A stretch of DNA of 64,000 nt from an uncultured Acidobacteriota bacterium (GCA_963770895.1 CAVYRF010000001.1:704481-768480); one strand, 5' to 3'. Positions 1 to 60,172 are shown, counted from the stretch's first letter. Translations and numbers: made by a program. The notes: generated by a model from the letters alone, not told the origin.

Positions 1-1026
1 TTCCAGCCGGTCGGGCGAAACCGCGATCTCGTGGAAGCTGGGCAGCGCCTTGTCGCTGTCGGGGAAGCGGCCGGCGTGCGGACCGGTGATGATCGCCGTC
101 AGGTCGCTGTGCACGATCTCGTGGCCGTCGAGCATGGCCAGGATCGGCAGCCCGCTGTGTGCATGACCCTGGGGATACCGCTTGGTGTAGTCGATCTCGG
201 GGAGCTTCGCGGGATCGGGACGCGTGCAGACGCCGTTGTCCCACGTGCTGTCCTTGCTCGCCAGGCACAGGTCTTCGTGGTTCACCTGGCTGCGGTACCA
301 CTCGGCGCCGGCAGGCTCAACGATCAGCGCGCCGAACAGCCCCTGCTGCAGCTGACCGCCGTCGCCGTTGCCGCCGTCGGCCAGGCTGAACGTGTCGCCG
401 GTGCTGTACAGCAGGAATTCCCCTTCTTCCGGGGCATACAGCTGATACGTGATCGGCGGCAGGCCAGGCAGAACCAGGCTGCCGGTGCCCCCGGGCGGGG
501 TGCCCTGGCCGTTCAGGCCGACCCACGATCCGTCGTCGGCCGGCCGGTTGAACCAGTTGAGCCCCTGCACGTGCACGCCGGTGGCGCGGGTGGAGGGCTG
601 GCCGGCTTCGGGCGTCGGCGACACCAGGTTGCGGAACTCCACCTGCAGGCACTGCCCGCGGTTGACCCGCAGCACCATCGGCCGGGCGCGCTTGTACTTT
701 TTCAGCTGCACCTGGCCCGCCTGCCAGGTCGTCCAGTCCGCCGTGTTGGCGTTGGTCGACGTCTTGCTGGACGGTTCGACGTCGCCGGCCAGGGCATAGA
801 TCATTGCGTTGGGGAGGGATGCCCCCAGGCGGTTGGCGGTGATGGTCGCGTCGAGCGCCACCACCCGCGCCGTGACCGTCTCCGTGCACGGCGCGCCGCT
901 CTGCGCCATGGCGCCTGCCGGCACCATCCATGCGGCCAGCATCAAAAGGGCCGCGGGCGCCCACCGCGAAACACTGCAAGCAAAGGTGGGCCAAAGTGTA
1001 CGACGGAGCACTGCCGAGCTCTCCAT
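1..1026 (-). CDS. Secreted hypothetical protein, partial (N-terminal portion; gene continues beyond window start)
   Basis: Hand-translated minus-strand frame not in the ORF track (no stop within window). The start codon is the complement of 1024-1026. The N-terminus reads MESSAVLRRTLWPTFACSVSRWAPAALLMLAAWMVPAGAMAQS, which has a signal-peptide-like hydrophobic segment. Downstream composition is protein-like and diverse (e.g. GVHVQGLNWF, YPQGHAHSGLPILAMLDGHEIVH). No confident family assignment; a cupredoxin/multicopper-oxidase-like fold was considered, but the motifs are not canonical. Confidence 0.45.
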   Translation of the reverse strand, partial: MESSAVLRRTLWPTFACSVSRWAPAALLMLAAWMVPAGAMAQSGAPCTETVTARVVALDATITANRLGASLPNAMIYALAGDVEPSSKTSTNANTADWTTWQAGQVQLKKYKRARPMVLRVNRGQCLQVEFRNLVSPTPEAGQPSTRATGVHVQGLNWFNRPADDGSWVGLNGQGTPPGGTGSLVLPGLPPITYQLYAPEEGEFLLYSTGDTFSLADGGNGDGGQLQQGLFGALIVEPAGAEWYRSQVNHEDLCLASKDSTWDNGVCTRPDPAKLPEIDYTKRYPQGHAHSGLPILAMLDGHEIVHSDLTAIITGPHAGRFPDSDKALPSFHEIAVSPDRLE

Positions 1027-1267
1027 ATCTCCTCCCGTTGGCAAGTACTACCAGCCGCTGACCCCTACGCGATCGGCCCATCTTGGAGGTCAGGTCCCCC
1101 CAAAGGCCATGGATCAGAATCGCGGCATAATCACTGTGTTGGCGAGTACTTTAGCACGTGACGAGGCGCACCCGCAACGCCTCGATCACCCCCTCGCGCC
1201 CCCGCCCCGCGCGCCCCCGCGAGCGACGCGCGGGCGCCACAGTGCGCCGCCGCGCCGGAGAAGGCGG

Positions 1268-3724
1268 CTAGGTCAGCAGGCCGAGGCGCTTGATGGCGGC
1301 TTGCAGGGTGTCGATGGTGACGGGCTTGGTGAGGTGGATGGCGAAGCCGGCGGCGCGGCTGCGGCGGAGGTCTTCGTCGCGGCCGTAGCCGGAAAGGGCG
1401 ATGCCGCGCAGGGCGTAGCGGCCGGAGAGGCGGCGCATGAGGTCGTGGCCGTCGCCGTCGGGGAGACCCGGGTCGCTGATCACCAGGTCGATGCCGCCGC
1501 GGTCGGCCGCGCGCACGGCGTCCGCGATGGTGCCCGCGACGCTGACTTGCAGGCCCAGCAGCCGGAGGAGCTGATCGATGGCCTCGGCGGTGTCGGCGTG
1601 ATCTTCGACCAGCAGGATGTGGCCCTGCGGCGCGGCCGGCACGCTGACGGCGGGCGCCGCGCCGGACGTCGCCGTCGCCGGCATCGCCGTCGCCGGCGGC
1701 GCCGTGGCGGCCGCGACCGATGCGACCGATGCGTACGATGCCGACTGTGCGTCCGCGGCAGGCGCGCCGGCGTCCGCGTGCCCGGCGCCCGCCGCGGCGA
1801 AACCGGACGCGGCGTCGAGCAGCGGCAGCAGCACGGTGAAAGTGGCGCCGCCGTCCTGGCCGGGGCTGGCCGCGGTCAGGCTGCCGCCGTGGGCGGCGAC
1901 GATGGCGCGGCTGATGGCGAGCCCCAGGCCCAGGCCGCCGAAGCGCCGGGCGGTGCCGGACCGGCCCTGGTCGAAGGCGTCGAAGATGTGCGGCAGCGCC
2001 TGGGCCTCGATGCCGATGCCGGTGTCGGCGATCTCGATCGCCAGGTTGCGCGGCGGTGGCTGCTGCTGGTGCCGGTGCTCCGGCCGCTCGCGATCGGATG
2101 GGGCGGCGGCGCGGGGGGCGATATCGGAGCCGGGGGCGCCGGGAGCGCCGGCACCGGCGACGGCGGCGTCGGGGGCGGGCGCCGTGGCGACGAAGGTGCG
2201 GATGCGGATGGTGCCGCCGGCGGGAGTGAATTTGACCGCATTGCTCAACAGGTTCCAGAAGACCTGCGCCAGGCGTGCCGGGTCGCCCCAGACCAGGTGC
2301 TCTGCGGCGCCCAGGTCGCTGGTCAGGTTGCGCGCCGCAAGCTCCCGTTCGCCGCAGGTTTCGCAGGCCTGGCGGAGGACCGACCGCAGGTCGGTCGGCT
2401 GGCTGTGCAGCTCCAGCTTGCCGCGCGTGCTGCGGGTCAGGTCCAGCAGGTCGTCGATCAGCCGCGCCTCCAGGTCGATGTTGCGGCGGATGACGGCAAG
2501 GTCGGCCTGCAGCGGCGGCGGCAGCGCGGCGTCGGCCTCCAGCTTGGAGGCGATGGCCAGGACCGGAGTCAGCGGCGTGCGCAGCTCGTGGCTGAGGGTT
2601 GCCAGGAAGTGGTCCTTGGCGTGGTTGGCGGCTTCCAGGTCGCGGTACAGGCGCGCGTTGTCCAGGGCCACGGCGGTGCGCCGGGCCAGCTCGATGGCGA
2701 CCGTCAGGTCCTCGTGCTGGTGGCTGCGGAGGGAGTCGCCATAGACCAGGTGCCAGACCCCCAGGGTGCGGTCGCGTGCCACCAGCGGCAGGCTGACCAG
2801 CGAGCAGGGGGAGAGGGCGGCGACGATCGCCGTGCCGGGACCGGCCGCCAGCGCGGCGGGGATCGCCGCCGCCGATCCGTTGGCGAGCAGCACCGGCTCG
2901 CCCGTGCGCATGACGGCTGCCGCGACCGACCCGTCGTGCCACGCGGGCGGCGTGGACTGCAGCTCGGTGAGCTGGCGCTGGCGCTCGCTGTCGGGCGACT
3001 TGCTGACGACGCGCTGGCCGTTGGAGCCGCGGTCCTTCAACAGGTCGATGACGCACCAATCGGCGAGCCTGGGCACCGCCAGCCGGGCGCCGGTTTCCAG
3101 CGCTTCGCCGGGCCCCAGCCAGGCGGACAGCAGCTCGCCGGCGTCGGCGAGCAGGCGCAGGCCGTCTTCGGCGCGCTTGCGCTCGGTGACGTCTTCGACG
3201 AAAGCGACAAACCCCAGGACTTCGCTGCCATGGACGTGCGGCACGAAGCTGGCGCGCAGGCAGCGCTCACCCAGGTCATTGCCCAGGGGGGCCCAGCGCT
3301 CGCACGAAATCTGGCGCCCGGCGAGCGTCGCGTCGATCGCCTCCTTGAGCACGCCGAAGGCGCCCTCGCCCAGCACCTCCGCCATGGTCCGTCCCGAGAT
3401 CTGGTGCACCGGCATGCCGAACCAGGCCTCGTAACGGCGGCTGTTGAAGCGGTAGCACAGGTCGCGGTCGACGTAGGCGACCAGCGCGGGCAGCGAATCG
3501 GTCACCAGGTGGAGCTGGCGGATGAGGTCGGCGGTATCGAGCGTGTACACCTGCTCGCCGCCGGGCGCAAGCATCACGAACGCATCCACCTCGCCGCGGC
3601 GGATGGCGCTCACCGTCTCTTCGGGCTCGGCCAGGCGCGCCCGCAGCTCGGCAATTTCTACCAGCAGCTCCTGGCGGGATTTGGCGGCGTCGATGGCGTC
3701 GGTGGCGGCGTTGGCGTCGGTCAT
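1268..3724 (-). CDS. Hybrid sensor histidine kinase / response regulator (PAS-GAF-HisKA-HATPase-REC)
   Basis: 818-aa ORF. The H-box is ATLSHELRTPLTPVLAIAS. The HATPase region shows N/G-box motifs (LLSNAVKFT, GGLGLGLAISRAIV). The C-terminal receiver domain reads HILLVEDHADTAEAI...DLVISDPGLPDGDGHDLM...KPV. The N-terminal PAS/GAF-like region includes a DVTERKRAEDGL coil. It lies directly downstream of kaiB on the same strand. Confidence 0.9.
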   Translation of the reverse strand: MTDANAATDAIDAAKSRQELLVEIAELRARLAEPEETVSAIRRGEVDAFVMLAPGGEQVYTLDTADLIRQLHLVTDSLPALVAYVDRDLCYRFNSRRYEAWFGMPVHQISGRTMAEVLGEGAFGVLKEAIDATLAGRQISCERWAPLGNDLGERCLRASFVPHVHGSEVLGFVAFVEDVTERKRAEDGLRLLADAGELLSAWLGPGEALETGARLAVPRLADWCVIDLLKDRGSNGQRVVSKSPDSERQRQLTELQSTPPAWHDGSVAAAVMRTGEPVLLANGSAAAIPAALAAGPGTAIVAALSPCSLVSLPLVARDRTLGVWHLVYGDSLRSHQHEDLTVAIELARRTAVALDNARLYRDLEAANHAKDHFLATLSHELRTPLTPVLAIASKLEADAALPPPLQADLAVIRRNIDLEARLIDDLLDLTRSTRGKLELHSQPTDLRSVLRQACETCGERELAARNLTSDLGAAEHLVWGDPARLAQVFWNLLSNAVKFTPAGGTIRIRTFVATAPAPDAAVAGAGAPGAPGSDIAPRAAAPSDRERPEHRHQQQPPPRNLAIEIADTGIGIEAQALPHIFDAFDQGRSGTARRFGGLGLGLAISRAIVAAHGGSLTAASPGQDGGATFTVLLPLLDAASGFAAAGAGHADAGAPAADAQSASYASVASVAAATAPPATAMPATATSGAAPAVSVPAAPQGHILLVEDHADTAEAIDQLLRLLGLQVSVAGTIADAVRAADRGGIDLVISDPGLPDGDGHDLMRRLSGRYALRGIALSGYGRDEDLRRSRAAGFAIHLTKPVTIDTLQAAIKRLGLLT

Positions 3725-3766
3725 AGGTCCAGCGTTGGTATCTCGGGCGGGTCGCTGGACCGCGCA

Positions 3767-4108
3767 TCATCTCCGCGGCAGCACATCCAATCCCACCAGC
3801 ACCCGTTCCGTCTGTGACAGGTCGCCGATGATCTTGCGCATCGGCGCCGGCAGCTTCCTTACCAGGGTCGGGATCGCCAGGATCTGGTCCGCCCGCGCCA
3901 GGTGCGGGTTGGCCATGAGGTCGATCACCTCGACCCGATATCTCCCTGCAAGATGCTCGCCGCAGATCTTTTTGAGGTTGCTGAGCGCCGCCATTGAGCG
4001 CGGGGTCTGGCCGGCGACGTAGAGCCGCAGGTCCCAGGTTCCCTCCTCCTGCTCGGGCGGGAGCGATGGAGGCGATGGAGACGAGGTGGTCTGGTCGTGG
4101 TTGCTCAT
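3767..4108 (-). CDS. kaiB: Circadian clock protein KaiB
   Basis: 113-aa product from the internal Met of a longer artefactual ORF: MSNHDQ...[85 protein letters not shown]. This is the canonical thioredoxin-like KaiB signature (LYVAG.TP...IPTLV...RKIIGDLS). The start ATG (4108-4106) overlaps the kaiC stop TGA (4107-4105) as ATGA. Confidence 0.9.
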
Positions 4109-5892
4109 AGCCGTTCCTTCCGAGCCGGCGAGCGGCCGCCGGCCCCCTCTGTCTGGCGCTTTTGCGCCATGTCCTGCCGCAGGCGGGCGTCGTCTTCGCG
4201 GCGGCGTTGCTCGCCGGCGAGCAGCGCCTCCAGGCGCTCCTCCTCGACTTTGAATTCGTGGCGCAGCAGGGCGATGCGGTTTTCCACGTCCTCGCGCTTG
4301 AGCTCCACTTCGCGCCGCCGCCGCTGCACCTCCAGCTGCCAGTCCGCCATCTCTTTGTCCTGTCGCGCCTGCTCCGCGGTGCGCGCCGAGCCGACCAGGA
4401 TGCCGGCAGGACCTACAAAAACCTCCGACAGCCGGATGCCGTGGTCGGTCAGCAGCAGCTCGCGCGTCTGCCGCGAGTGACCCATGCCGCGCGACTTGAA
4501 CAGCGACAGGGTGCGGTTGCGCTCGCCGCCCGCTTCGACGTCGCTCAACACCAGCCAGCTGTCGATCAGCGACGAGACGCCGACCACGGATTCCTGTTCG
4601 TTGCGGTGTGGCGTCGTCAGGCTGGTGTACAGGGCGGTGACGCGGCGCTCCTTCAGGAAGTCCAGCAGCCGCACCAGCAGCGACCGCACGTCGTTGGCGG
4701 AGCTGGTGGACAGGAAGGTGCCGATCGAATCGATCACGACCATCTGGGCGTCGGTGTCGCGCACCGCGCGGTGGATCACCGCCAGATGGCTTTCCAGGCC
4801 GTGCAGCGTCGGCCGCGCCGCGTGGAAGCGCAGCAGCCCCTCGCGCAGTGGGGTTTCCATGTCGAGGCCGATCGATGCCATGTTGCGCACCACCTGGTCG
4901 TGCGACTCCTCGAAGGAGAAATAGAGGCACTTTTCGCCGCGCTTGCAGGCTGCGGCGACGAAGGACGACGCCAGGCTGCTCTTACCGCTGCCGGCAACGC
5001 CGGAGATCAGGACGCTGCTGCCGCGGTAGAAGCCGCCGCCCAGCATGGCGTCCAGGTCCGGCACGCCGCTCGAGATCCGCTCGCGCGACACCTTGTAGTC
5101 GAGGCCGGCGGCGGTGATCGGCAGCACCTCCAGGCCTTCGCTGTCGATCAGGAAGGGGTATTCGTTGGTGCCGTGGGCCGAGCCGCGGTACTTGACGATG
5201 CGCAGGCGGCGCGTCGCGATCTGGTCCACCACCCGATTGTCCAGCAGGATGACGCAGTCCGACACGTACTCTTCGATGCCGAAGCGGGTGAGCGCGCCGT
5301 CGCCGCGTTCGGCGGTGATGATCGCCGTCACGCCGCGGTCCTTGAGCCAGCGGAAGAGTCGCCGCAGCTCGGCGCGCAGGATGGCCTGGTTGGTGAGACC
5401 GCCGAAGAGCGCTTCCAAGGTGTCCAGGACAACCCGTCTGGCGCCGATCGCGTCGATGGCGAAACCCAACCGGATGAACAGCCCCTCCAGGTCGTAGTCG
5501 CCGCTCTCCTGGATCTCGCCGGGTTCGATGTGCACGGTGTCGACGGTCAGCAGGTGCTGCTTCGCCAGGGCGTCCAGGTCGAAGCCCAGCGAGCGGACGT
5601 TGGCGCTCAGCTCGTCGGCGTTCTCCTCGAAGGCCAGGAAGACGCCGGGTTCGCCGCACCGCGTCGCGCCGTGCACCAGGAAGTGCATCGCCAGGAGCGT
5701 CTTGCCGCACCCGGCGCTGCCGCACACCAGGCTGGGCCGGCCGGCCGGCAGGCCGCCGCCGGTGATCTCGTCGAGACCGGCGATGCCGGTGGCGGCCTTG
5801 GGCAGCGCGCCGGCGGCGGTCTGCACGCGGCTGTGGCTGACGGTGGTCGGCGGCGGTGCGGGCCGCTGGTCGCTGTCCGTCGTCTTGCTCAT
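4105..5892 (-). CDS. kaiC: Circadian clock protein KaiC (double RecA-like ATPase) with about 100-aa C-terminal coiled-coil-like extension
   Basis: 595-aa product starting at the internal Met MSKTTDSDQ; the upstream 212 aa of the ORF are Arg/Pro-rich junk. Two Walker A motifs (GSAGCGKT in [10 protein letters not shown] in CII). Catalytic EE pairs ([20 protein letters not shown]). A Ser/Ser phosphosite region aligns with S. elongatus S431/T432 ([10 protein letters not shown]). The C-terminal tail is rich in E/R/Q/L heptad-like sequence ([65 protein letters not shown]). Confidence 0.92.
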
Positions 5893-5909
5893 GGCGTTGG
5901 TCTGGCGCC

Positions 5910-7796
5910 TTACCCTGACGATAGCGACCCTCGCTGTATCCGGCCGCCGCCTGCCCGTGCCTGCCGCGGGTGGGAAGCGGTCGGAGTATACACCTCCGGC
6001 ATGGTGGCGCCGGGTGACGACAGCATCCCCCTGGCCGCCGCCAGGGCTGCCGCCAGGGGGATGCGGGCGGGGCGGTTGCGGGCGGCGTCGAAGAGGGCCT
6101 GGCTGAGCGGTCCCGCGGGCTGGGAGTGGACCAGCTTTTCGTGGTGGGCAAAGTAGAGGGTGGGCGTGGCGGCGGCTTCGGCCAGGTGGATCGGGGCGCT
6201 GTCGTTGGAGACCAGCAGGCGCGCGCCGGCGACCAGGGCCGCCAGGGCGCCGAAGGAATCCCGGCGGATGACGATGCGGCCGCGGTCGGCGGCGCCGGCC
6301 TGCCCGCGGCGCAGGTGTTGCTCCACCGCGGCGAGCACCGCGGCGTCGCCGGCGCCGCCTTCGATCAGCACGTGCAGGCCGTCGGCCGCCAGGCCCAGCG
6401 CCAGGGCGGCGAACTTGCGCGCCGGCCAGCGGGTCGACGAGCGCGCGCCGGGGGTGAGCACCGCGAAGGGGGCGTCGCCGATCCCGGCGGCGGCGAGCGC
6501 CGCGGCGGCTTCGTCGCGCCAGGCGGCGCACAGCGGCAGCTCGATGCGGCGGTCGACCGAGCCCGCCGGCGCGGCACCGGGCAGCGGATCGAGCGCGTGC
6601 AGCAGCAGGCGCGGGCTGGGCAGGGTGTTCCAGAAAAACCAGGCCTCGTGGGTGAACAGCGGCGACGCCTCGCGGCCGTCGTCCGCCGCGTCGAAGTATT
6701 CCAGGTTGACCCGCCAGGGAATGCCAAGCTGGGCCGCGGTTTCAGCCAGCCACCGTGCCGCCGGGCGCCGCACAAACGCGAACAGTGCGGCGTCGAAGCG
6801 GCGCGCCGCCAGCTGCTGCACCAAAAGCTGCCGGGGGGAGAGCCCGGCCGCGCCGTGCGGATTGACCAGAGGGTCCAGCGGGTCGAGCGGATCCAGCTGT
6901 GCCAGCGGGCTCGCCGCCTCCGGAGGATGCAACGGGTTCACCCGGTCCGGCGGGTTCGCTGGGGTCGGGCTCACGGGCTTCAGCGCGTTCGGAGTGTTCG
7001 GTGTCTTTGGCGATTCCCGTGGGTCCGGCGGCAGGATCAGCAGCTCACCCAGCCGCGGATTGGTTGCCAGCGCCGGCACCGCGCCCGGGGCGGCCAGCAC
7101 GGTGATCCGGACACCGGGCAGCCGGCTGTGCAGCGCGCGCAGCAGCGGCGTCAGCCACAGCGCGTCCCCCAGATGGGAGCGCGCCTGGAAGACCAGCACG
7201 CTGCGGACCGGGGCGGCGGGGCCGGGCGCCGCGGTCAGCCAGTGCGGCGAGTCCGCCGCCAGCGCGGCGGCGAACGCGTCGCCCGCCGCCCGCGCCGCCG
7301 CCCCGTCGGGCAGCCGCCATTGGAAGGCGCGCGGCACCGGCGCCAGCCACCAGCCGGGCCGCCCGGCAATGCGCTCTGCGATGGCGGCGTCGTCGCCCAG
7401 CAGCACGCCGGCGGCGCCCGGCCGGGCGAGGCCGCCGGGGCTCCAGGGCGGTGCCCCTCCGTCGGGCGCCGCGGCGCCGCCGGGGATCCGCGCGACCGCC
7501 GCCGCCGGGAGCAGCGCAAAGGGGGCGTCGGTGGCCAGGGCCGAGCGCAGCCAGACCCGCGTGCGCACCGCGGGCCGCGCCGCCCCCAGCCCCTCGAGCA
7601 GGCCGTACAGGCCGGCGAATTCCAGCCGGTGATGCACCGGCTGCCCGCACACCAGCTCCAGGTCGAAGCCCGCGGCGACCCCCTCCTGTGCCGCGACGGC
7701 GTCCAGGGCGCGCAGCAGGCCGGCGACGGTCGCGGGCAGCACCGGCAGGGGCAAGGTTCCCGCCGGGCGGCGAAGCTGTGGCTGGGGATCGGTCAT
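5910..7796 (-). CDS. Glycosyltransferase family 9 (heptosyltransferase-like) with about 190-aa N-terminal extra domain
   Basis: Internal Met MTDPQPQL at residue 509 of a 1136-aa ORF whose N-terminal 500 aa are junk. The GT9 N-terminal signature is VLVFQARSHLGDALWLTPLLRALHSRLPGVRITVLAAPGAVPAL. The C-terminal signature is LVSNDSAPIHLAEAAATPTLYF. A Pro-rich linker insertion (PTPANPPDRVNPLHPPEA...LDPLDPLDPL) separates them. The stop lies 18 bp upstream of the kaiC start. Confidence 0.7.
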   Translation of the reverse strand: MTDPQPQLRRPAGTLPLPVLPATVAGLLRALDAVAAQEGVAAGFDLELVCGQPVHHRLEFAGLYGLLEGLGAARPAVRTRVWLRSALATDAPFALLPAAAVARIPGGAAAPDGGAPPWSPGGLARPGAAGVLLGDDAAIAERIAGRPGWWLAPVPRAFQWRLPDGAAARAAGDAFAAALAADSPHWLTAAPGPAAPVRSVLVFQARSHLGDALWLTPLLRALHSRLPGVRITVLAAPGAVPALATNPRLGELLILPPDPRESPKTPNTPNALKPVSPTPANPPDRVNPLHPPEAASPLAQLDPLDPLDPLVNPHGAAGLSPRQLLVQQLAARRFDAALFAFVRRPAARWLAETAAQLGIPWRVNLEYFDAADDGREASPLFTHEAWFFWNTLPSPRLLLHALDPLPGAAPAGSVDRRIELPLCAAWRDEAAAALAAAGIGDAPFAVLTPGARSSTRWPARKFAALALGLAADGLHVLIEGGAGDAAVLAAVEQHLRRGQAGAADRGRIVIRRDSFGALAALVAGARLLVSNDSAPIHLAEAAATPTLYFAHHEKLVHSQPAGPLSQALFDAARNRPARIPLAAALAAARGMLSSPGATMPEVYTPTASHPRQARAGGGRIQRGSLSSG

Positions 7797-8572: not shown

Positions 8573-8669
8573 TGAGCGCGCGGCGCGCAGTGGGCGATAC
8601 GCCAGGCCGGCGCGGGCAGTGGGCGATGACGGGCCGGATGCCGCGCCAACCGGGAAGGAGGCAGTGCCG

Positions 8670-9482
8670 ATGGAAGACACCGTAGCGGCGGCGGGCGCCA
8701 CCGACGCCGAGCGCTATTTCTTCGAGGCCAACGGCTACCTGGTGATCCACGACGCCCTGGGGCCGCGCGACCTGGCGCGGGTGTGCGCCGCGGGCGAAGC
8801 CGCCGCCGCGCGCTGGCGGGCCGATCCGGCGCTGCCGGGGCCGCGCCGCGCCGACCTGGAAAGCATCCTGGCGATCGTCGAATACGACCCGGTGTTCCTG
8901 GAGGTGCTGGAAAACCCGCGCGTCCTGCCGGTGGTGCGCGACCTGCTGGGCCCGGATCTCATGCTGGTCGACAACGACTACTTTCTCACCCCGCCCGGCG
9001 CCACGATCCGCCGCGGCTGGCACTACGACGAATCCTTCCCCGGCGTGTATCACCCGCGCTCGCGGCTGCTGGTCAAGGTGTTCTACGTGCTGCAGGACAT
9101 CCCGCCCGGCGGCGGCGCCACGCTGGTGCTGCCCGGCTCGCACTGCTTTGCCGCCGACCTGCGCCTGCCCAACTCCGAGGTGCCCGAAGACCTGCCGGGA
9201 AGCGTGCCGCTCCACCTGCCGGCGGGGGCCGCCTATCTGATGTCCGGGCGCACCTATCACTCGGCCGGCACCAACCGCTCGGCGCTCTACCGCAAGCTGC
9301 TGATCTATACCTATGGGCACAAATGGATGCGCGTCTGGGACAGCTACGAACCCTCGGCGGCGCTGGCGGCGCGCGCCGAGCGGCCGATCACCCGCCAGCT
9401 GCTGGGGCTGACCGATCCCTATGGCGCCAACGCGCCCCTGGCGGCAAGCGACGGCCAGGCGGCCGCCCAGGTGGAAGCGTGA
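8670..9482 (+). CDS. Phytanoyl-CoA dioxygenase (PhyH) family Fe(II)/2-oxoglutarate oxygenase, paralog 1
   Basis: An SD (GGAAGGAGG) lies 8 nt upstream of the ATG. The N-terminus is MEDTV...ERYFFEANGYLVIHDAL. The HxD...H facial triad candidates are WHYDESF and GRTYHSAGTN. The sequence has the typical PhyH jelly-roll pattern. Confidence 0.8.
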   Translation: MEDTVAAAGATDAERYFFEANGYLVIHDALGPRDLARVCAAGEAAAARWRADPALPGPRRADLESILAIVEYDPVFLEVLENPRVLPVVRDLLGPDLMLVDNDYFLTPPGATIRRGWHYDESFPGVYHPRSRLLVKVFYVLQDIPPGGGATLVLPGSHCFAADLRLPNSEVPEDLPGSVPLHLPAGAAYLMSGRTYHSAGTNRSALYRKLLIYTYGHKWMRVWDSYEPSAALAARAERPITRQLLGLTDPYGANAPLAASDGQAAAQVEA

Positions 9483-10261
9483 GCGCGGCCACCCTGTGCG
9501 ACGACGAGCGCCTCTTCTTCGAGGCCAACGGCTACCTCATGCTGGAAGGCGCCCTGACCGCCGCCGAAGTCGCCCGCCTGCGCCAGGTCACCGACGAAGC
9601 CGAGCAGCGTTTTCACCGCAACCCCGATCTGCCGGGCTCGCGCCTGCCGGAATTCCTTGAGCTCGAAGCCATCATGGAGTATCACCAGCAGCTCTTCGAT
9701 CTCGTCGAGCACCCCCACGTCTTCCCGCGCGTGCGCCAGGTGCTGGGCCCCGACATCGCCGTGATCGATCACGCCTACTACGTCACCCCGCCGGGCGGCG
9801 TCGTCACCGGCAGCGCCTGGCACACCGACCTGGGCAAGCGCATTCACGGCGTCTACAACCCGCGCTCGATCCTGATGGTGCGGGTGATGTACACCCTGGA
9901 CGACGTCGGTCCGAACGACGGCGCCACCCTGGTGCTGCCGGGCTCGCACCGCTTCACCCCCGACGTCGCGGTGCCGCGCGTCGAAGTGCCCGAGCAGATG
10001 CCCGGCAGCGTGCGCCTGACATGCCCGGCCGGCAGCGCCTACCTGTTCAACGGCAACATCCTGCACTGCCCCGGCAACAACCGCGGCACCCGCAACCGCC
10101 GCATGCTGCTCTACAACTACGGCCACCGCTGGATGCGCATGTGGAAAGGCCACGACCCGTCGCCATGGCTGGCCCAGCGCGCCACCACCCCCATGCGCCG
10201 CCAGCTCCTCGGCCTCGGCCGCCACTACTACGGCGCCGACGCCCCCTGCGAACCCGCCTGA
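9479..10261 (+). CDS. Phytanoyl-CoA dioxygenase (PhyH) family oxygenase, paralog 2 (GTG start)
   Basis: GTG start overlaps the previous stop (GTGA). VSAATLCDDERLFFEANGYLMLEGAL aligns to the paralog 1 N-terminus. Shared motifs include WHTDLG and HCPGNNRGTRNRRMLLYNYGHRWMRMW. 260 aa. Confidence 0.75.
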   Translation: MSAATLCDDERLFFEANGYLMLEGALTAAEVARLRQVTDEAEQRFHRNPDLPGSRLPEFLELEAIMEYHQQLFDLVEHPHVFPRVRQVLGPDIAVIDHAYYVTPPGGVVTGSAWHTDLGKRIHGVYNPRSILMVRVMYTLDDVGPNDGATLVLPGSHRFTPDVAVPRVEVPEQMPGSVRLTCPAGSAYLFNGNILHCPGNNRGTRNRRMLLYNYGHRWMRMWKGHDPSPWLAQRATTPMRRQLLGLGRHYYGADAPCEPA

Positions 10262-11442: not shown

Positions 11443-13359
11443 TCAGAGCCCGCGGCCGAGCAGGGCGTGGATGCGGTCCAGGTACAGGCCGGCGACCGCC
11501 TCCTGCGAGCACAGCCGCGCCACCTTGCGGCGCAGCGGCGCGCCGACGCCGGGGCCCAGGCGGGCCAGCGCCTGGCGCAGCGATGCGACGTCCGGTTCGC
11601 CGTCGCGGCTGTCGACGAACAGGATCTCGTCGGCGAACACCTGCGGCAGGGCGCCGACGCGGGTGGCGATCACCGGCACCCCCAGCATGCCGGCCTCCAC
11701 GACCACCATCGGAAACCCTTCGCTGGCCGACAGCACGACGACCGCGTCGACGCTGCGCAGCAGCGTGCCGATCGCCATGCCCGGCGGCAGCAGGTGCAAG
11801 CGCTGGGTGGTGCCGTGCGCGGCGGCCAGGGCCGCCAGGCCGGCGCGGGTCTGCTCGGCGGTGTCGATGCCCTGCACGACCAGGTTGCAGTCGAGCTCCG
11901 CCAGGCGCTCGACCAGCCAGGCGGCGCGCTTGAACAGCAGCAGCCTGCCCAGGAAGCCCAGGATCGGGGGATGCCGCGATCGTGCCGTCCGCGCCGCGCC
12001 GCCGGCGAACAGGCGCTGGCCGCTGCCGCGCAGGCGATCGCGTGAGCACGGGTTGGGGATGACCACGGCGTCGTCGATGCGGTCGCGCATCACCGGCGAC
12101 ACGCAGGCGCAGTCGTCGATCACGTGCCGCCAGCGCCGGTGGACGTCGACCTCCTGCTCCTTTTCCGTGTGCACCACGCGCAGCGAGCGCGGCCTGCGGG
12201 TCATCGACGCCAGCGCCCGCGGCACGGCGGGATTGAGCCCGTACCACAGCGCCACGTCCTGGTCCTCCAGGGCCGCCACCAGGTCCTGGCCGGTGGCGGC
12301 CACCGTCGCCGTGCCGAAGCGCGCCACCAGCTCCGGCGCCAGGTCGAAGAGCGGCTGCGGCCGCGCGTCGGCGTTGGGATCGTTGGGATCGCGGCGGGCC
12401 GGCAGCGGCGCGCCGCCCGGCACCTGGTCCAGGACGCAGACGGACACGGCGGCCCGGCGGCGCAAGGCCTCGGCCACCGCGATCATCGCGGTTTCGCCGC
12501 CGCCCAGCTCGCGGTGGGGGAAGACCACGCAGACGCGCGGCCGCGCGTGCCGCCCCCGCCGTCCCTGCCGCAGCGGTGCGAGCGGCGGCCGCTTGGCGCC
12601 GATCCCCGCCTTGCGATGGGCGATGAAGCTCCCCCAGGGGTGGGGACCGCCGGGGTCGAGGTGCACGACGTGGGTGGCGGCCAGGGCGTCGGCGATGCGC
12701 GGCGGATTGAACGGGAAGTGCCATTCGCCGCGAATCCAGCCGACGCGGTGCAGGCGGCCGGCCGCCGCCAGGCGCGCCAGGATCTCGCCCTCCGCGCCCT
12801 CGCAGTCCAGTTTCAACAGGTCGATCTCGGGGTTGCCGTGGCGGTCGAGCAGCTCGATCACGTCCAGCGCATCCACCACCACGGTGGCGGCGGCGCCTTC
12901 GCCGTGCGCCAGCGCCGCGCCCACCTCCTCGACGCGGCTGGCCGCGGCGTTGCCGTCCGCGTTGGCGCCGCCCTGGCGCAGCCGGGTGGTGCGCGCCCCC
13001 GGCCGGCCGAGCACCGCGCCGGCAAACACGCTCACCCCGTCCAGGCCGCCGACGTTGTGCGCCAGCAGGGCGGCGCTTTCGGGGTCCGGCTCGGCGGCGA
13101 TCACCCGCGCCTCGGGCCACAGGCGTTTGACCTTCAGGGTGAAGGCGCCGACGTGGGCGCCGACGTCGAGCACCGTGCGCGGGCGGTCGCCCGCCGCGCA
13201 AAGCGGCGCCAGCTGGTATTCGTCGCCTTCCAGGATGGAGCGCACCACTTCCTCGTCGCAGCGCCGCCCCGGCGGCTGGGCGCGCACCCAGAGCGTGAAG
13301 CCGGCCACTTCGATCGGCGCGGCATCCAGCAACAGGCGGGTGGCGACGACGAGCTGCAA
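11443..13359 (-). CDS. FkbM-family methyltransferase fused to GT1/GT4-type glycosyltransferase
   Basis: 638 aa. The N-terminal FkbM-like SAM methyltransferase region reads VLDVGAHVGAFTLKVKRLWPEARVIAAEPDPES. The C-terminal GT-B fold region reads AVVVLSASEGFPMVVVEAGMLGVPVIATRVGALPQVF. Confidence 0.75.
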   Translation of the reverse strand: MQLVVATRLLLDAAPIEVAGFTLWVRAQPPGRRCDEEVVRSILEGDEYQLAPLCAAGDRPRTVLDVGAHVGAFTLKVKRLWPEARVIAAEPDPESAALLAHNVGGLDGVSVFAGAVLGRPGARTTRLRQGGANADGNAAASRVEEVGAALAHGEGAAATVVVDALDVIELLDRHGNPEIDLLKLDCEGAEGEILARLAAAGRLHRVGWIRGEWHFPFNPPRIADALAATHVVHLDPGGPHPWGSFIAHRKAGIGAKRPPLAPLRQGRRGRHARPRVCVVFPHRELGGGETAMIAVAEALRRRAAVSVCVLDQVPGGAPLPARRDPNDPNADARPQPLFDLAPELVARFGTATVAATGQDLVAALEDQDVALWYGLNPAVPRALASMTRRPRSLRVVHTEKEQEVDVHRRWRHVIDDCACVSPVMRDRIDDAVVIPNPCSRDRLRGSGQRLFAGGAARTARSRHPPILGFLGRLLLFKRAAWLVERLAELDCNLVVQGIDTAEQTRAGLAALAAAHGTTQRLHLLPPGMAIGTLLRSVDAVVVLSASEGFPMVVVEAGMLGVPVIATRVGALPQVFADEILFVDSRDGEPDVASLRQALARLGPGVGAPLRRKVARLCSQEAVAGLYLDRIHALLGRGL

Positions 13360-22103: not shown

Positions 22104-25100
22104 GTGTCTGACAGCGAGCACCCTTTCGCCGCGCGCGGAGCTGGCGCGGCTCCGCAGGACCTCGCGCCGGCCGGCGATCTGGACGGCGGGGACGGCCGTG
22201 ACGCGATGCTGCGGGCGGCCGGGCCGGAAGAGCGGGCCGCCCTGGCGCTGGCCTGGCTGCGGCGCCAGGCGGCGGCCACCCTCGACCGGGACGCCGCGCA
22301 GCTCCCCGCGGACCGTTCGCTGGTGGCCCTGGGATTGGACTCGCTGGCGGCGGCCGAGCTCTCGGGCGCCGTCGAAAACATCCTGAAAGTGCCGCTCGGT
22401 GTAGCCGACCTCCTGGCCGGCGCCAGCCTCGCGGAGCTGGCCGGCGACATCGCCCGCAATCTCGATGAGGCTGCGGCGGCGTCGCACGCCGGCCAAGCCG
22501 GCGGTACGGTCCACGCCGGGGACGACGGCCGCCAGGTGGTCGTGCCGGAGCCCCACCGCGCCGGCGCGCCGCCCCCCGCCGCGCCGTCGCCCCGCACCGC
22601 CCTGTCGTGGGGCCAGCGCGCCCTGTGGCTGGTGGACCGCATGGCGCCGGGCAACCCGGCCTACATCCTGGCCGGCGCCGCGCACGTCGGGGTTGGCGCC
22701 GCGCGCGGCGGCGACCTCGACGTGGCGCGGTTGTGTCAGGCCATTACCGCCCTGGTCGCTCGCCATGCGGCCTTGCGCATGCGGTGCGAGCAGGGGAGCG
22801 ATGGAGAGGTGGTGCAGGTGGTGGGCGACCAGCCGCTGTTCGGCTGGCTTGAGGTGGATGCCGGCGTCCTGAGCGAGCAAGGGTTGCACGAGCTGGTGGC
22901 AGAGGAGGCTTGGCGGCCGTTCGACCTCGCCCGCGGGCCGCTGCTGCGAGTGGCTCTGTTCCGCGGTGGCGGCCGGGCGCCGCTGCTGGTGCTCGCGGTG
23001 CATCACATCGTCGCCGACTTCTGGTCGCTCGGCGTGATGATCGACCAGCTGGGTGCGCTCTACCAGGGGCGCCTCCTGGCGCCGCTCGCGGCGACGCATG
23101 GCGAGCACGCGCGGCGCCAGGCGGAGCGGTTGGCGGGACCCGAGGGGGAGGCCCTGGCGGCCTGGTGGCGCGCCGCGCTGCCGCCGGGGGCGCCGGCGCT
23201 CGAGCTGCCGACCGACCGGCCGCGGCCGCCGGTGCAGGGATTCCGCGGTGGCGCGCGGACGCGCTGGTGGGAGCGGGAGCTGGTAGGGGAGCTCGACCGG
23301 CTGGGCCGGCGGGCCGGGGCCACGCCGTTCATGACCCTGCTGGCCGCCTACATGACGCTGCTGCACCGCTACACCGGCCAGCCGGAGCTGCGGGTGGGGA
23401 CGCCAGCGTCCGGCCGTGGCGCGCCGGACCTCTCGGGCCTGGTGGGCTACTTCGTCAATCCGCTGGTGGTGCGCGGCGAGCTGGCCGGCAACCCCGGCTT
23501 CGAGCAGCTGCTGAGCCGGGTGCGGCAGGCCGTGCTCGCGGTGTTTGCCCACCAGGACTTCCCGTTTGCGCTGCTCGCCGAGCTGCTGGGCGGCGCCCGC
23601 GATCCCAGCCGGCCGCCGGTGTTCCAGGCGATGTTCGTGTTCTACAGCGAGCGGCGCGCCGGCGAGCGCGGGATGAGCGGTTTCGCGCTGGGCGAGGCGG
23701 GCGCGCGGCTCGATCTTGGCGGCCTCACGCTCGAATCGGTGCGGCTGCCGCGGCGCGGCGCGCAGGTCGATCTGACGTTGCTGGCGGCCGATCGCGACGA
23801 TCGCGACCAGCGCGCCGAGCGCGAGGGTGCGCGGGCGGTCTCGTTGCAGTTCGACAGCGTGCTCTTCGACGGCGCCACGGCGGAGCGGATGCTGGGTCAC
23901 CTGTGCGCGCTGGCCGCCGCCGCGGTCGCCGATCCGGGGTGCGGCATCCGCGACCTGCCGCTGCTCACCGCCGGCGAGCGCCAGCAGGTGGCGGAGTGGA
24001 ACGCCACCGCCGTCGCCTGGCCTGGCGACCTGCGCCTGCACCAGCTTTTCGAAGAGCAGGCGCGCCGCACCCCGGACGCGGTGGCCGTGGTGGTCGACGC
24101 CGCTACCGACGCCGACGCCGACGCCGACGCTGATACCGGCGCCGACACCGCCGGCGCCGGGTCCCGTCGCGGCCCCGCACCGCCGGCGGCCGGCCGCGCG
24201 GTGGCTTCCGCCGCGTGCTGGACCTACCGCGGCCTCGACCGGCGCGCCGACCGGCTGGCGCGAAGGCTGCGGCAGGCCGGCGTCGGGCCGGAATCCGTGG
24301 TGGCGATCCTGGCCGAGCGCTCGGCCGCCATGGTCGCCGGCCTGCTCGCCATCCTCAAGGCGGGCGGCGCCTACCTGCCGCTCGATCCCGACCACCCCGC
24401 CGAGCGCCTGCGCCAGATGCTGCACGACTCAGGCGCCGGCGTGCTCCTGGCACAGCGCCGGCTGCTGCCGCGGCTGGGCGAGCCGGACGCGCCGCCTGTC
24501 GTCGCGGCCGCGGTGCTGGTGCTCGACGATCCCGACCGGGACGATTCCGCCCAGGACGAGCAGGACGATCCCGCCACCGGCGGTGCCGCGTTCGGCGCTG
24601 CCGCTCTTGCGCTGGCGCCCGACGGCCGGCCGGAGCGTGCGCCGCCGCCGCTGGAGCGCGCCGTCCACCCGGATAGCCTGGCGTACGTGATCTATACCTC
24701 GGGCTCGACCGGCCGGCCCAAAGGCACCATGAACACGCACCGGGGCATCGTCAACCGGCTGCTCTGGATGCAGCAGCAGTACCGATTGGCGGCCGACGAC
24801 CGGGTGTTGCAGAAGACGCCGCTGTCCTTCGACGTGTCGGTCTGGGAGCTGTTCTGGCCGCTCGCGACGGGGGCGTGCCTGGTGATGGCCCGTCCGGGCG
24901 GGCACCGCGACAGCGGCTACCTGCTGGCGGCGCTGGCGGCGCACCAGATCACCACCGTGCATTTCGTGCCGGCGATGCTGAGCGATCTTCTCGCGGCCCT
25001 GCCGCCGCGGGGCGATGCAAGCTCGGGCGCCGGCCCGTGGGACGCCGCGCCGGCAGGGCTGCGCCGGGTCGTGGCAAGCGGCGAGGCGCTGCCCTACGGT

Positions 25101-28100
25101 CTCCAGCAGCGCTATTACGCGGCGCTCGCGGCGCCGCTGCACAACCTCTACGGCCCTACCGAAGCCGCGGTCGACGTCACCCATTGGGCGACCGACCCGG
25201 ACGCCGATCGGCGGCTGGTGCCGATCGGGCGGCCGGTGGCCAACACCTGGATCCGGCTGGTCGACCGCCAGGGCGGGCTGGTGCCGATCGGTGTACCGGG
25301 CGAGCTGTGCATCGGCGGCGTGCAGCTGGCGCGCGGCTACCTGGGCCGCCCGGCGCTGACCGCCGAAAGGTTCGTGCCCGATCCGCTGGGCGACGCGGCA
25401 GGAGCGCGCCTCTACCGCACCGGCGACCTGGCGCGCTACCTGCCGGACGGTGCCATCGACTACCTGGGCCGCCTGGACCACCAGGTGAAGATCCGCGGCG
25501 TGCGCATCGAGCTCGGCGAGATCGAAGCTGCCCTGCTGCGCCATCCGGCCGTGCGCGAAGCGGTCGTCACCGTGGCCGCCGTGGCGGACCACGCCTCGCC
25601 GGCCGGCGCCGACCCGCGGCTGGCGGCCTACCTGGTGACGCGCGGGGCGGCCGCGCCGCCGCGGGCGGGAGAGCCGGCGGCTGGGGAGCCGGCCGCGCCG
25701 CCTGCTGCGCCGGCCGCCGCGCCGCCGTCCGACCTGGCCGACGACCTCCGCCGCCTGCTGCGTCAGAGCCTGCCGGAGGCGATGATCCCGGCGGCCTTCG
25801 TGGTGCTGCCCGCGCTGCCGCTGTCGGCCAACGGCAAGGTGGACCGCCGGGCGCTGCCGGCGCCGCGGTGGGGCGCCGCCGCGGTCGCGGGCACGCCGCC
25901 GCGCACTGCCGACCAGGAGATCCTGGCCGGCCTGTTCGCGGAGCTGCTGGGGCTCACGGTCGCTGGCGACCGCAGCGGCGACAGCAGCGGCAACGGCGGC
26001 AGCAGAGCTAGCGGCGACAGCAGCGACGACGGCGAAAGCAGCGGCAACGGCGGAAGCAGCGGCAACGGCGGAAGCAGAGGCAGCGTCGACAGCGGAGGCA
26101 GCGGCGCCGCGGCCGGCGGGTGGGTGGCTGGAACACAGGGGGGCGAAGCCGCGGACGCGCGCGGCGTCGCGGCGGCGAGCGGTGGGGAGCAAGGCGGCGG
26201 CCTTGGCATCGACCAGAGTTTTTTCGATCTCGGCGGCCATTCGCTGCTGGCGACCCGCCTGCTGGCGCGGGTGCGCCAGGTGTTCGCGGTGGAGCTGCCG
26301 CTGCGGCAGGTGTTCGAGGCGCCGACGGTGGCCAGGCTCGCCGCGGCGATCGCGGCGGCGCGGCGGGGCGACCTGGCGGCGGCGCCGCCGCTCGTGCCGC
26401 TGCCGCCCGCGGCTCGCCAGGGGCCGCTGGCGCTCAGCTTCGCGCAGGAGCGCATGTGGTTTCTCGACCAGCTGGAGGGCGGCGGTGCCACCTACAACAT
26501 GCCCGGCGTGCTGCGCCTCGCGGGCCCGCTGCAGGTGGCGGCGCTGCGCGCCGGGCTGGCGGAGGTGTGCCGCCGCCACGAGGTGCTGCGCACGACGTTC
26601 ACCGTGCGCGATGGCGCCGCGGGGCCGGTCGCCCGCGTCGCCCGGCCGGCCGCCGCTCCGGGGCCGCCGCTGCCGCTGGTGGATCTGTCCGGGCTGGCGG
26701 CCGGCTGCCGACAGGCGGTCGCCTCGCGGCTCGCCGCCCTGGAGGCGCGGCGCCCGTTCGACCTCGTCGCGGGCCCCGTGCTGCGCGCCGTGCTGCTGCG
26801 CCTGAGCGGCGGGCCGCCCGCGGCGGCGCAGGCGCTCCACCTGCTGCTGCTCACGCTGCACCACATCGCCGCCGATGCCGAGTCGGTCGAGGTGCTGGCG
26901 CGCGAGCTGGCCGCCCTCTATACCGCGGGTGCGACCGGCAGGCCGCCAGACGCGGCGGCGCTGCCGCCGCTCCCCGTCCAGTATGCCGACTTCGCCGCCT
27001 GGCAGCGGGCGGCGCTCAGCGGCGACCGGCGCGCGGCCGAGGTGGCTTTCTGGCGCGAGCAGCTTGCCGGCGCGCGCGGCGCACCGCCGGTGCTCGAGCT
27101 GCCCTGCGATCGGCCGCGCGGCACGGTGAGCGGCCGGCGCGGGGCGCGGCGCCCCGTGGTGCTGCCCGCCGCGCTGGCCGGCAGGCTCGCGGCGGTGGCG
27201 CGGGACCACCGCGCCACCCTGTTCATCGCCTTGCTGGCGGCCTTCGACACCCTGCTGGGCCGTTACGGCGGCCAGGACGACGTCGCGGTGGGCGTGCCGG
27301 TCGCCAATCGCGACCGCGCCCAGATCCAGCCGCTGATCGGGCTGTTCGTCAACACGCTGGTGCTGCGCCTCGACCTGTCGGGCGACCCCACCTTTGGCGA
27401 GCTCCTGGGGCGCGCGCGGCAGACGGCGCTGGCCGCCTACGGCCACCAGGAGATGCCGTTCGAGCAGCTGGTCGCCCACCTGCAGCCGCGGCGCGCAGCG
27501 GGCGAAAGCCCGTTCTTCCAGGTGGTCCTGGCGCTCCAGCCCGGCCTGGCGGCGCCGGCGATGGCGGGCCTGGCGGTCGAGCTCGCCCCCGGCGACACCG
27601 GCACCGCCAAGTTCGACCTGTCTTTGGCGCTCGACGTCGCGCCCGACGGCAGCCTTGCCGGCACCTGGACCTGGCGCGCCGGCCTGTTCGACCCGGCGAC
27701 GATCGAGCGGCTTTCGGTGCAGCTGCGGCAGCTGCTCGCGGCGGTCGCCGCGGGCGAACCGGGACCGGCGGGCCGCCTCTCCGAGCTGCCGCTGCTCGGC
27801 CCGGCCGAGCGCCACCAGCTGCAGCGGGAATGGAACGACGTCTGGCAGCCGGGCGGCGGCGACCTGCTGCATGCGGCGTTCGAGCGGCGGGCGGCGCAGG
27901 TGCCCGACGCGGTGGCGGCGGTGGAGGCCGGCCACGACGGCCTGATGGGGCGCAGCCTCACCTACGGCGAGCTGGCGGCGCGCGCCGGCCGGCTGGCGTG
28001 CCGGCTGGCGGCGCTGGGAGTCGCGCCGGAGCGGATCGTCGGCGTCTCGCTCCCGCCGTCGCTCGACCTGCTGGTGGCGCTGCTCGGCATCCTCAAGGCG

Positions 28101-50387: not shown

Positions 50388-51785
50388 TCACGGCGCCGCC
50401 GGCGACTCCTCGGGCCAGGAGAGCAGCGCCTGGTGCGCCGCTTCCGCCATCTGCAGCTTTTCGGCGGCGTCCGCCGGGTTGTCGGACTGCAGGCGGGCGG
50501 CGGCGACGCTGTTGCGCAGCCACCGGTCGGCCTGTTCGTAGTAGGCGCGCGAGCGCTGGCCGCGCAGCCGGTAGTCGCGGTCGGTGGCGGTATCCCAGCT
50601 CTTGTCGAGCTGCACGCGGTCGGCCACCTGGCGGAAGTAGGCGGTGTTCTTGATCGGGTAGGCGACGGTGGTGAAGAAGATGTTGGGGTTGGCCTTTTTG
50701 ACGTGCTCGACGGTGGCTTCGATGTCGGCCAGCGTTTCGCCCTGGTAGCCCCACATCAGGAACATGCCGACTTCGATGCCGTGGCGCTGGGCGGCGTGGG
50801 TCGCCCACTGCACCTGCTCGGCGGTGACGCCCCGATCCATGGCGTCCAGGATGCGCTGGCTGCCGCTTTCAGAGCCGATCCAGATGCGGTAGCAGCCCAT
50901 TTCGGCGAGCGTCGCGATCACTTCGTCCTTGAGCAGCCGATCGGCGCGCGAAATGGTTTCGAAAGGGCGCACCAAGCCGCGCTTCTTGAGCAGGCCGGCG
51001 AACTCGAAGAGCCAGCGGTGGTGGATGGTGAACACGTCGTCGGCGTACCACAGCTGTTCGGGCTGGTAGGCTTCGACGATGTGCGCCACTTCGTCGGCGC
51101 AGTCGAGCGCGCTGCGCCGGCGATGGGTGTAGCCGAACACGGCGTGCGAGCACCATTTGCAGCGATACGGGCAGCCGCGCGCGGTGATCAGGTTGACGCT
51201 GCCCATGCCGTGGTGGGTGTGCCAAACGTCGACGTAGCGGGCGATGTCGATCTGCTCGCGATCGGGCCAGGGGAGGCTGTCCAGGTCGGCGATCTGTTCG
51301 CGGTCCGGATTGGTGACGACCTCCCCTTCTTCGTCGCGGAAGACCGTGCCGTGCAGGCCGTGCAGACGGTGCGGACCGCGCAGGGCGAGCGCCGGCAGCA
51401 GTTCCGCGAGCGTCGCTTCGCCTTCGCCCACCACCACGACGTCGGCGCCGTGGGCCAGGTATTCGGCCGGGTAGTTGGCCGATTCGGGGCCGCCGAGCAC
51501 CACCGTCCAGCCGTGCTGCCGCGCGGCGGCGATGATGGCGAGGATCGACGCGCGGGTCATCAGGTTGGTGTAGATCCCCACCACGCCGCCGGGAGTGGCG
51601 GCAAGGCGCTGGCGCAGCGCGGCGCGCTCGGCGAACGTGGAATCGAAGATCTCGACGCTGAAACCGGCGCGACGCAGATACGAAGAGATGTAGAGCAGCC
51701 CCAGCGTCGGGTAGGGCTTCATGATCTGCAGCTCTTTGGGATCTTCGTGCAGGAAGTAGCCGTGGGTCAGCAGGATGTCGGCCAT
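50388..51785 (-). CDS. Cobalamin-binding (class B) radical SAM enzyme, tandem paralog
   Basis: 465 aa. The N-terminus is MADILLTHGYFLHEDPKELQIMKPYPTLGLLYISSYLRRAGFSVEIFD. The rSAM cluster is CPYRCKWCSH. Confidence 0.85.
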   Translation of the reverse strand: MADILLTHGYFLHEDPKELQIMKPYPTLGLLYISSYLRRAGFSVEIFDSTFAERAALRQRLAATPGGVVGIYTNLMTRASILAIIAAARQHGWTVVLGGPESANYPAEYLAHGADVVVVGEGEATLAELLPALALRGPHRLHGLHGTVFRDEEGEVVTNPDREQIADLDSLPWPDREQIDIARYVDVWHTHHGMGSVNLITARGCPYRCKWCSHAVFGYTHRRRSALDCADEVAHIVEAYQPEQLWYADDVFTIHHRWLFEFAGLLKKRGLVRPFETISRADRLLKDEVIATLAEMGCYRIWIGSESGSQRILDAMDRGVTAEQVQWATHAAQRHGIEVGMFLMWGYQGETLADIEATVEHVKKANPNIFFTTVAYPIKNTAYFRQVADRVQLDKSWDTATDRDYRLRGQRSRAYYEQADRWLRNSVAAARLQSDNPADAAEKLQMAEAAHQALLSWPEESPAAP

Positions 51786-51786
51786 A

Positions 51787-60144: not shown

Positions 60145-60172
60145 CCTCGCCGCCGGCGCGCGGCGCGCTGGT

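Follow-up and report, generated by a model that had tools for sequence, protein, structure and literature searches.

The locus discussed here raises the question of whether a bacterium outside the cyanobacteria carries a timing device that works without KaiA, and to which known class such a device would belong. It lies at positions 1268 to 5892 of a stretch of 64,000 nucleotides from an uncultured Acidobacteriota bacterium (GCA_963770895.1 CAVYRF010000001.1:704481-768480), and "the window" below means this whole stretch. The original prediction had read the locus as a Kai module lacking kaiA, with an inverted kaiC-kaiB gene order and a KaiC bearing a long coiled-coil-like C-terminal extension. 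We consider it very probable that the three genes form an operon encoding a KaiA-independent KaiBC phospho-switch of the KaiC2 or KaiC-RS class, with a linked sensor kinase. The gene order, the overlap of the genes, the tail of KaiC and the downstream kinase are all the norm of this class, and the module fits a known and structurally characterised class. The single element that may be new is the N-terminal head of the sensor proteins linked to kaiB.

The window is very GC-rich (68-78% GC), and the operon consists of three co-directional genes on the minus strand, on which all operon features given below are located. The first gene, kaiC (5892..4105), starts with ATG and encodes 595 amino acids (aa) matching Pfam PF06745 in two stretches (E 1.9e-111). 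The second, kaiB (4108..3767), encodes 113 aa (Pfam PF07689, E 5.9e-26), and the third (3724..1268) encodes a hybrid sensor histidine kinase of 818 aa, its open reading frame (ORF) beginning 42 nt past the kaiB stop. By direct sequence reading, the kaiB start ATG shares four nucleotides with the kaiC stop TGA, forming an ATGA overlap at 4105..4108 within the junction CGGCTATGAGC. The order kaiC then kaiB, the overlap and all coordinates of the earlier description were confirmed from the sequence.

Judged by its sequence, the KaiC belongs to the KaiC2 class, like the KaiC of Cereibacter (Rhodobacter) sphaeroides. It has two intact RecA-type ATPase domains, a Ser-Ser pair and a predicted helix of some 80 residues, each position of which has its homologue in the C. 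sphaeroides coil. The CI domain (aa 34-259, 5116..5793) contains the Walker A motif GSAGCGKT at 58-65 and the catalytic residues E89/E90; the CII domain (aa 270-500, 4393..5085) contains the Walker A motif GVAGSGKS at 298-305 and the catalytic residues E328/E329. In an alignment of 62 family sequences the Walker A lysines and both Glu-Glu pairs were invariant, including K64, T65, E89 and E90. The Ser-Ser pair S440/S441 (codons at 4570..4575), equivalent to the phosphosites S413/S414 of KaiC-RS, was invariant in the same alignment. In the alignment with solved chains, the query segment vSSlid faced SS in the wild-type chain 8DBA and EE in the S413E/S414E chain 8FWI.

The best solved relatives of this KaiC were the C. 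sphaeroides chains 8DBA (E 4.5e-191), 8FWI and 8DB3, with a score of 639 bits to 8DBA versus about 321 bits to the KaiC of S. elongatus. The alignment with 8DBA ran from query residue 29 to 567 against chain residues 4-542, with one gap of a single residue towards the protein's phosphosite end and none in the tail. Compared with full-length KaiC-RS from plasmid pRSKD131A, the identity was 55.4% (549 aa). The NCBIfam KaiC model NF006799 gave 707.8 bits, above its cut-off of 408, and the cyanobacterial KaiC equivalog TIGR02655 gave 338.4 bits, below its cut-off of 546.25; the phosphosite pair is Ser-Ser, not Ser-Thr. The PDB alignment, the curated family models, the predicted structure and the fold search therefore agree with the earlier suggestion that the protein belongs to the class of R. 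sphaeroides KaiC with a C-terminal coiled coil. It does not group with canonical cyanobacterial KaiC, as the failure of TIGR02655 and the S. elongatus match with half the bits indicate.

In the KaiB, the KaiB domain (aa 28-108) is preceded by some 25 aa rich in Ser and Pro. Among solved structures, KaiB-RS in its complex with KaiC-RS came closest (8FWJ chain M; E 7.3e-31), with 68% identity over 81 aa. The system most similar to the whole module is thus the KaiC-RS/KaiB-RS pair of C. sphaeroides KD131 (8DBA, 8DB3, 8FWI, 8FWJ; PMC10076222), which shares a KaiC 55% identical including the coil, the same Ser-Ser sites, a KaiB 68% identical, the order kaiC-kaiB-sensor kinase, a kinase with the same N-terminal head and, as far as the 64-kb window goes, the lack of KaiA. 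The two systems differ in several details. The present module resides in a high-GC, probably acidobacterial metagenome-assembled genome (MAG) on a contig of at least 2.24 Mb, whereas that of KD131 is found on a plasmid of a purple phototroph. The kaiC and kaiB genes overlap by 4 nt here and are 2 nt apart in KD131. The KaiC here is longer by about 23 residues at the N-terminus and by about 5 at the C-terminus, and the KaiB adds its N-terminus of about 25 aa. The kinase here has the architecture PAS-GAF-HisKA-HATPase-REC (818 aa), and that of KD131 is a PAS HWE kinase of 478 aa.

The similarity to S. elongatus PCC 7942 KaiABC is limited to the double-domain KaiC fold, the catalytic residues (36% identity in the fold alignment) and the KaiB family. 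The cyanobacterial system differs in its order kaiA, kaiB, kaiC, its Ser-Thr pair, its buried A loop needing KaiA and its lack of a C-terminal coil.

To judge whether the gene order is unusual, we used a comparison set of 81 loci, composed of 80 from a scan of GTDB species genomes (among the matches listed) and the nearest metagenomic relative (L081). The kaiB gene was located directly 3' of kaiC on the same strand in 76 of the 81 related loci, which come from many phyla, and a possible 4-nt overlap (ATGA or GTGA) was found in 37 of these 76. Two kaiB copies were common in several groups, Bacteroidota among them. The plasmid pRSKD131A, from which the characterised proteins derive, is annotated with kaiC, kaiB and an HWE histidine kinase in that order, and the Pararhizobium plasmid p3 carries kaiC, kaiB, kaiB and a hybrid kinase. 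In R. palustris, kaiC, kaiB and a PAS histidine kinase are placed under one predicted promoter (Ma et al. 2016, PMC4794148); by description, this system shares with ours the single-operon order, a longer KaiC C-terminus, Ser-Ser in place of Ser-Thr and the lack of KaiA, which in our case refers to the window. The order called inverted in the original prediction is therefore real, but it is standard for the class. In three related loci, L070 and L076 (Ignavibacteria) and L065, a KaiC with C-terminal extension was found with no kaiB directly downstream.

The best KaiC relatives showed 53-64% identity among the GTDB scan matches listed and 72-74% by protein search. The nearest relative, L081, had 72% KaiC identity, the ATGA overlap, and a kinase at the same position 59% identical over its full length. 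Identical KaiC and Nramp proteins are on record from a contig of 2.24 Mb, and the nearest named relatives were MAGs of Thermoanaerobaculia (Acidobacteriota), with 67-68% identity in KaiC and 81-83% in Nramp, and the host is likely a member of the Acidobacteriota and not of the Proteobacteria. Together with the spread over many phyla, these relatives contradict the idea that the class is specifically proteobacterial. A contig of 6.8 kb assigned to an archaeon (Candidatus Methanoperedens sp. MAG, L077) contained a kaiC with tail (57% identity), two kaiB genes and a head-bearing kinase; such a bacterial-type module on an archaeal contig points to horizontal transfer or a binning error.

The PAS-GAF hybrid histidine kinase with receiver noticed directly downstream of kaiB was borne out by the Pfam matches PAS_4, GAF_2, HisKA, HATPase_c and Response_reg. 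From the N-terminus, the protein comprises the head (aa about 15-66, 3527..3682), the PAS_4 domain (aa 76-184, 3173..3499; E 2.9e-13), the GAF domain (aa 220-355, 2660..3067; GAF_2, E 1.4e-07), the HisKA phospho-acceptor domain (aa 369-434, 2423..2620; E 1.5e-12), HATPase_c in two stretches (aa about 480-636, 1817..2287) and the C-terminal receiver domain (REC, aa 703-812, 1289..1618; E 2.2e-16). The H-box SHELRTPL is located at 378-385 and the REC motif DLVISDPGLPDGDG at 746-759. The HATPase_c domain is split by a low-complexity Ala/Pro/Gly-rich insert of about 45 aa (aa about 512-558; window 2050-2190, minus). In the orthologue from L081 this insert is much shorter, and a long Gly/Pro-rich insert is present in the GAF region instead.

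In S. elongatus, output passes through SasA, which has a KaiB-like N-terminal domain, and CikA. The kinase in the window is not of the SasA type, as its N-terminus is formed by a helix and a hairpin instead of a KaiB-like domain. No KaiB-like domain was found in it with Pfam, and NF006800 (PRK09303, listed only as 'histidine kinase'), which we take to be a model of SasA-type kinases, gave 102 bits against a cut-off of 342.

The head itself showed the motif ...LRARLAEPEETVSAIRRGEVDAFVM...VYT and, over about 50 aa, the consensus L..E..ELR.RLEEAEETLRAIR.GEVDA.VV....G..VYT, with the core motif AIR.GEVDA. AlphaFold2 applied to kinase residues 1-200 predicted a helix at 17-42 and a β-hairpin at 48-61 (pLDDT, the predicted local distance difference test, 85-96); the PAS part was poorly modelled, the alignment being without depth there. 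No Pfam or NCBIfam model matched the head, and we found no description of it in our literature searches.

The head is tightly linked to kaiB. In all 70 loci with a readable downstream ORF, the gene after kaiB opened with the head, some 50 residues long, and a PAS domain came next. Searched against the window and 1.18 Mb of loci, a hidden Markov model of the head gave 74 matches, 71 directly after kaiB and three elsewhere. The head was also detected in the C. sphaeroides HWE kinase (55 bits) and in the Pararhizobium kinase (57 bits), and a search of 7.3 Gb of plasmids gave two matches, both beside kaiC-kaiB. When kinase residues 1-66 were compared with 1.84 billion representative proteins, 1773 clusters were obtained at E up to 0.001; for 148 of the best 150 clusters, in proteins of 58-1388 aa, the match began no further in than residue 40. 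A database search with the head alone returned short fragments of 40-88 aa, mostly bits of frameshifted or truncated genes, which served only as an unbiased sample for gene context, and all six whose contigs were inspected lie directly after a KaiB gene. Among the 71 head proteins, PAS was present in 66, HATPase_c in 57, HisKA in 36, REC in 24, HisKA_3 in 20, GAF in 10, HWE or HisKA_2 in three, and GGDEF-EAL in one. The kinase in the window is thus a regular member of the proteins linked to kaiB.

One candidate for a stand-alone head protein of 82 aa (P0305, L087 4626-5599, between KaiB and a receiver-domain gene) was dropped, as its C-terminal half looks out of frame. At L087 this 82-aa head ORF is recorded on many contigs, and no kaiC was found within 5 kb.

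Since in many phyla the gene after kaiB nearly always opens with the head while the output domains vary, we might tentatively speculate that it acts as a Kai-coupling module, docking sensor proteins onto KaiB or the KaiB-KaiC complex, as a counterpart of the N-terminal domain of SasA or the pseudo-receiver of CikA. The linkage to kaiB is a direct observation, and the docking is suggested by it. An equally plausible role for the head would be that of a dimerisation cap for the neighbouring PAS domain.

The mechanism that we propose for the module is modelled on C. sphaeroides, whose KaiC-RS and KaiB-RS act in vitro as an hourglass driven by ATP/ADP (Pitsawong et al. 2023, PMC10076222). By analogy with that system, KaiC hexamers would be joined by their tails, in a 12-helix bundle, to form dodecamers. 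An exposed A loop would allow quick autophosphorylation of KaiC without KaiA while ATP/ADP is high, as the 55% identity to KaiC-RS suggests. KaiB would bind the CI ring in the post-hydrolysis state and speed ATP hydrolysis, leading to dephosphorylation of KaiC as ATP/ADP falls, and the outcome would be an hourglass reset by the energy state of the cell and not a free-running clock (PMC10076222). From the gene linkage, the hybrid kinase would read the state of KaiBC, probably through its N-terminal head and PAS domain, and relay it by phosphorelay. Pitsawong et al. (2023, PMC10076222) had already described a large kaiC2 clade marked by two serine sites and a tail some 50 residues long, and a preprint of 2026 carries the work on this clade on to reconstructed ancestors.

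Several points weigh against this reading of the module. The KaiB scored just under the NCBIfam KaiB cut-offs (104.2 versus 110), and the search for KaiA covered 64 kb of the genome. AlphaFold2 was run on the KaiC monomer, and a single-chain model cannot predict a dodecamer. In a Fourier test of Kyte-Doolittle hydrophobicity along the tail, the signal was borderline at period 7 (p about 0.04-0.06) and fell short of significance at period 3.5; the test also failed on the solved coil of KaiC-RS. We know of no phototrophs among the Thermoanaerobaculia-like Acidobacteriota, and a day-night role is for this reason less obvious than in purple bacteria. Furthermore, KaiC2-type systems elsewhere are regarded as stress-related (the KaiBC of Legionella) or clock-independent (Synechocystis) (PMC5520375, PMC11372060). 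The KaiC2-KaiB2 system of Synechocystis sp. PCC 6803 is, by description, a member of the subgroup characterised by two serine phosphosites, kinase activity independent of KaiA and an extended C-terminus (Schmelling et al. 2017, PMC5520375; Koebler et al. 2024, PMC11372060), in which we also place the present KaiC. In that cyanobacterium it occurs beside a complete KaiABC clock, of which its function is believed to be independent.

It is possible, though in our opinion rather doubtful, that the same proteins keep no time at all and serve in stress or energy-state signalling, as proposed for the kai operon of Legionella and for KaiC-like proteins of Pseudomonas. The probably non-phototrophic Acidobacteriota lineage of the host, as indicated by the nearest named relatives, and the published views on Legionella and Synechocystis favour such a role, as does the spread of the class over many phyla not known for daily physiology. 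However, the closest characterised homologue, with 55% identity and the same operon, is the ATP/ADP-driven hourglass described above, and the KaiC of R. palustris, a phototroph whose KaiC is of the same class, gives a demonstrated fitness benefit under light-dark cycles (PMC4794148). Moreover, an energy-state switch and an hourglass are mechanistically one device, so that the signalling role differs from the KaiBC hourglass mainly in physiological use.

The formation of dodecamers would depend on the C-terminal extension of KaiC, which we divided into aa 501-582 (4147..4392), predicted as a single long helix and homologous to the coil of KaiC-RS, and a basic tail of aa 583-595 (4108..4146), predicted to be disordered and variable in length and sequence among homologues. 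The last residue that aligned with S. elongatus KaiC was query residue 503, matching residue 494 of 519, with 92 residues following here versus 25 there. The net extension is about 67 residues over S. elongatus KaiC and about 5 over KaiC-RS. The extension had been put at about 95 extra residues; its presence holds, but its size is 92 residues past the last aligned position and about 67 net. The peptide quoted for it corresponds to KaiC residues 521-567. Through AlphaFold2 with the family alignment (mean pLDDT 81), residues 501-582 were predicted as a single unbroken helix, with pLDDT 86-93 to about residue 570, and residues 579-595 as disordered (pLDDT below 50), so the tail is for the most part predicted to be helical and not disordered. 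In a Foldseek search against the PDB, the chains of the KaiC-RS dodecamer ranked at the top, with 527-559 aligned columns and E values of about 1e-65 to 1e-59. For cyanobacterial KaiC only 463-470 columns aligned, and the extension aligned to the KaiC-RS chains alone.

The extension might instead be a flexible helical or disordered tail that makes no coiled coil between hexamers, leaving KaiC a plain hexamer, but we consider this quite improbable. The weak heptad signal and the monomer-only prediction mentioned above would fit a plain hexamer, and so would the charged residues found in the heptad table at one of the two core positions in the first half of the helix and the fact that the coil of KaiC-RS is dispensable for autophosphorylation. 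However, the segment aligned without gaps to the solved KaiC-RS coil and was gap-free across all close homologues, with R533, E537 and R544 near-invariant; residues 505-585 contain no proline and only three glycines, and the high-pLDDT prediction is a single helix. The periodicity test has little power, because the solved KaiC-RS coil also failed it. That coil packs via Cβ atoms of Ala/Arg in one state and via side chains of Leu/Ile in the other (Pitsawong et al. 2023, PMC10076222), which accounts for an atypical heptad pattern and for the failure of the KaiC-RS control.

In agreement with the earlier statement that kaiA is absent, no KaiA was detected in the six frames of the window by tblastn (best E 0.34) or phmmer (best E 1.5), using as query the S. 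elongatus KaiA sequence verified against the PDB. A six-frame search also revealed no second kaiB or kaiC in the window. A KaiA3 adjoining the operon was considered and rejected, since the neighbour upstream encodes a GT9 glycosyltransferase and the one downstream of the kinase a secreted protein with signal peptide. The contig measures at least 2.24 Mb, of which the window represents 64 kb, and KaiA3-type proteins are reported in the literature from a few non-cyanobacterial genera. Even so, it is extremely improbable that the module belongs to a self-sustained oscillator of the KaiABC type with KaiA or KaiA3 encoded elsewhere in the genome, since the window and these flanks contain no KaiA-like sequence, the literature confines KaiA to cyanobacteria and pairs KaiA3 with KaiB3/KaiC3 and not with KaiC2, and the present KaiC fails the cyanobacterial model and bears the extension described as replacing KaiA.

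Upstream of the operon, a distance of only 17 nt separates the end of the GT9 heptosyltransferase-like gene from the kaiC ATG (window 5893-5912, minus), and an alternative in-frame GTG start of kaiC is present at 5826. This short distance implies that the kai promoter lies inside the GT9 gene, that kaiC is co-transcribed with it, or that kaiC starts at the GTG. The GT9-kaiC arrangement was not kept in L081, where the upstream gene is divergent. Downstream, a gene on the minus strand (1-1026, running off the window, ATG at 1026) encodes a protein without Pfam match whose clear signal peptide marks it as secreted. It starts 241 nt after the kinase stop, behind the strong ribosome-binding site GGGAGGAG. 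With the GT9 gene on one side and this separately started gene on the other, the kai module can be confined to its three genes. A consensus scan of 900..6600 found no sigma-70-like promoter, and terminator-like sites in the same region were no commoner than in shuffled sequence.

Several other gene groups were observed in the window. A single ORF of 4114 aa (22104-34448, plus) encodes a three-module non-ribosomal peptide synthetase with four condensation, three adenylation and four carrier domains and a terminal thioesterase. Two tandem PhyH-family dioxygenase genes with a slight overlap are located at 8640-10261 (plus), adjoined by an FkbM-methyltransferase/GT1 fusion (11443-13359, minus). 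Two adjacent B12-binding radical SAM genes were found at 50388-53367 (minus), and a polysaccharide biosynthesis cluster at 56828-61063 (minus) comprises a GT4 glycosyltransferase, a Polysacc_synt_3 flippase-like protein and a GT2 glycosyltransferase.

As a Kai module, the present locus adds little to what was published in 2023 on the structure, mechanism and wide distribution of the class. It provides a complete three-gene module in a probable Thermoanaerobaculia genome, which fits the view of a device sensing the energy state of the cell rather than light. For the output route of the KaiC2 hourglass, the kaiB-linked head offers a concrete candidate segment that may bind KaiB or KaiC.

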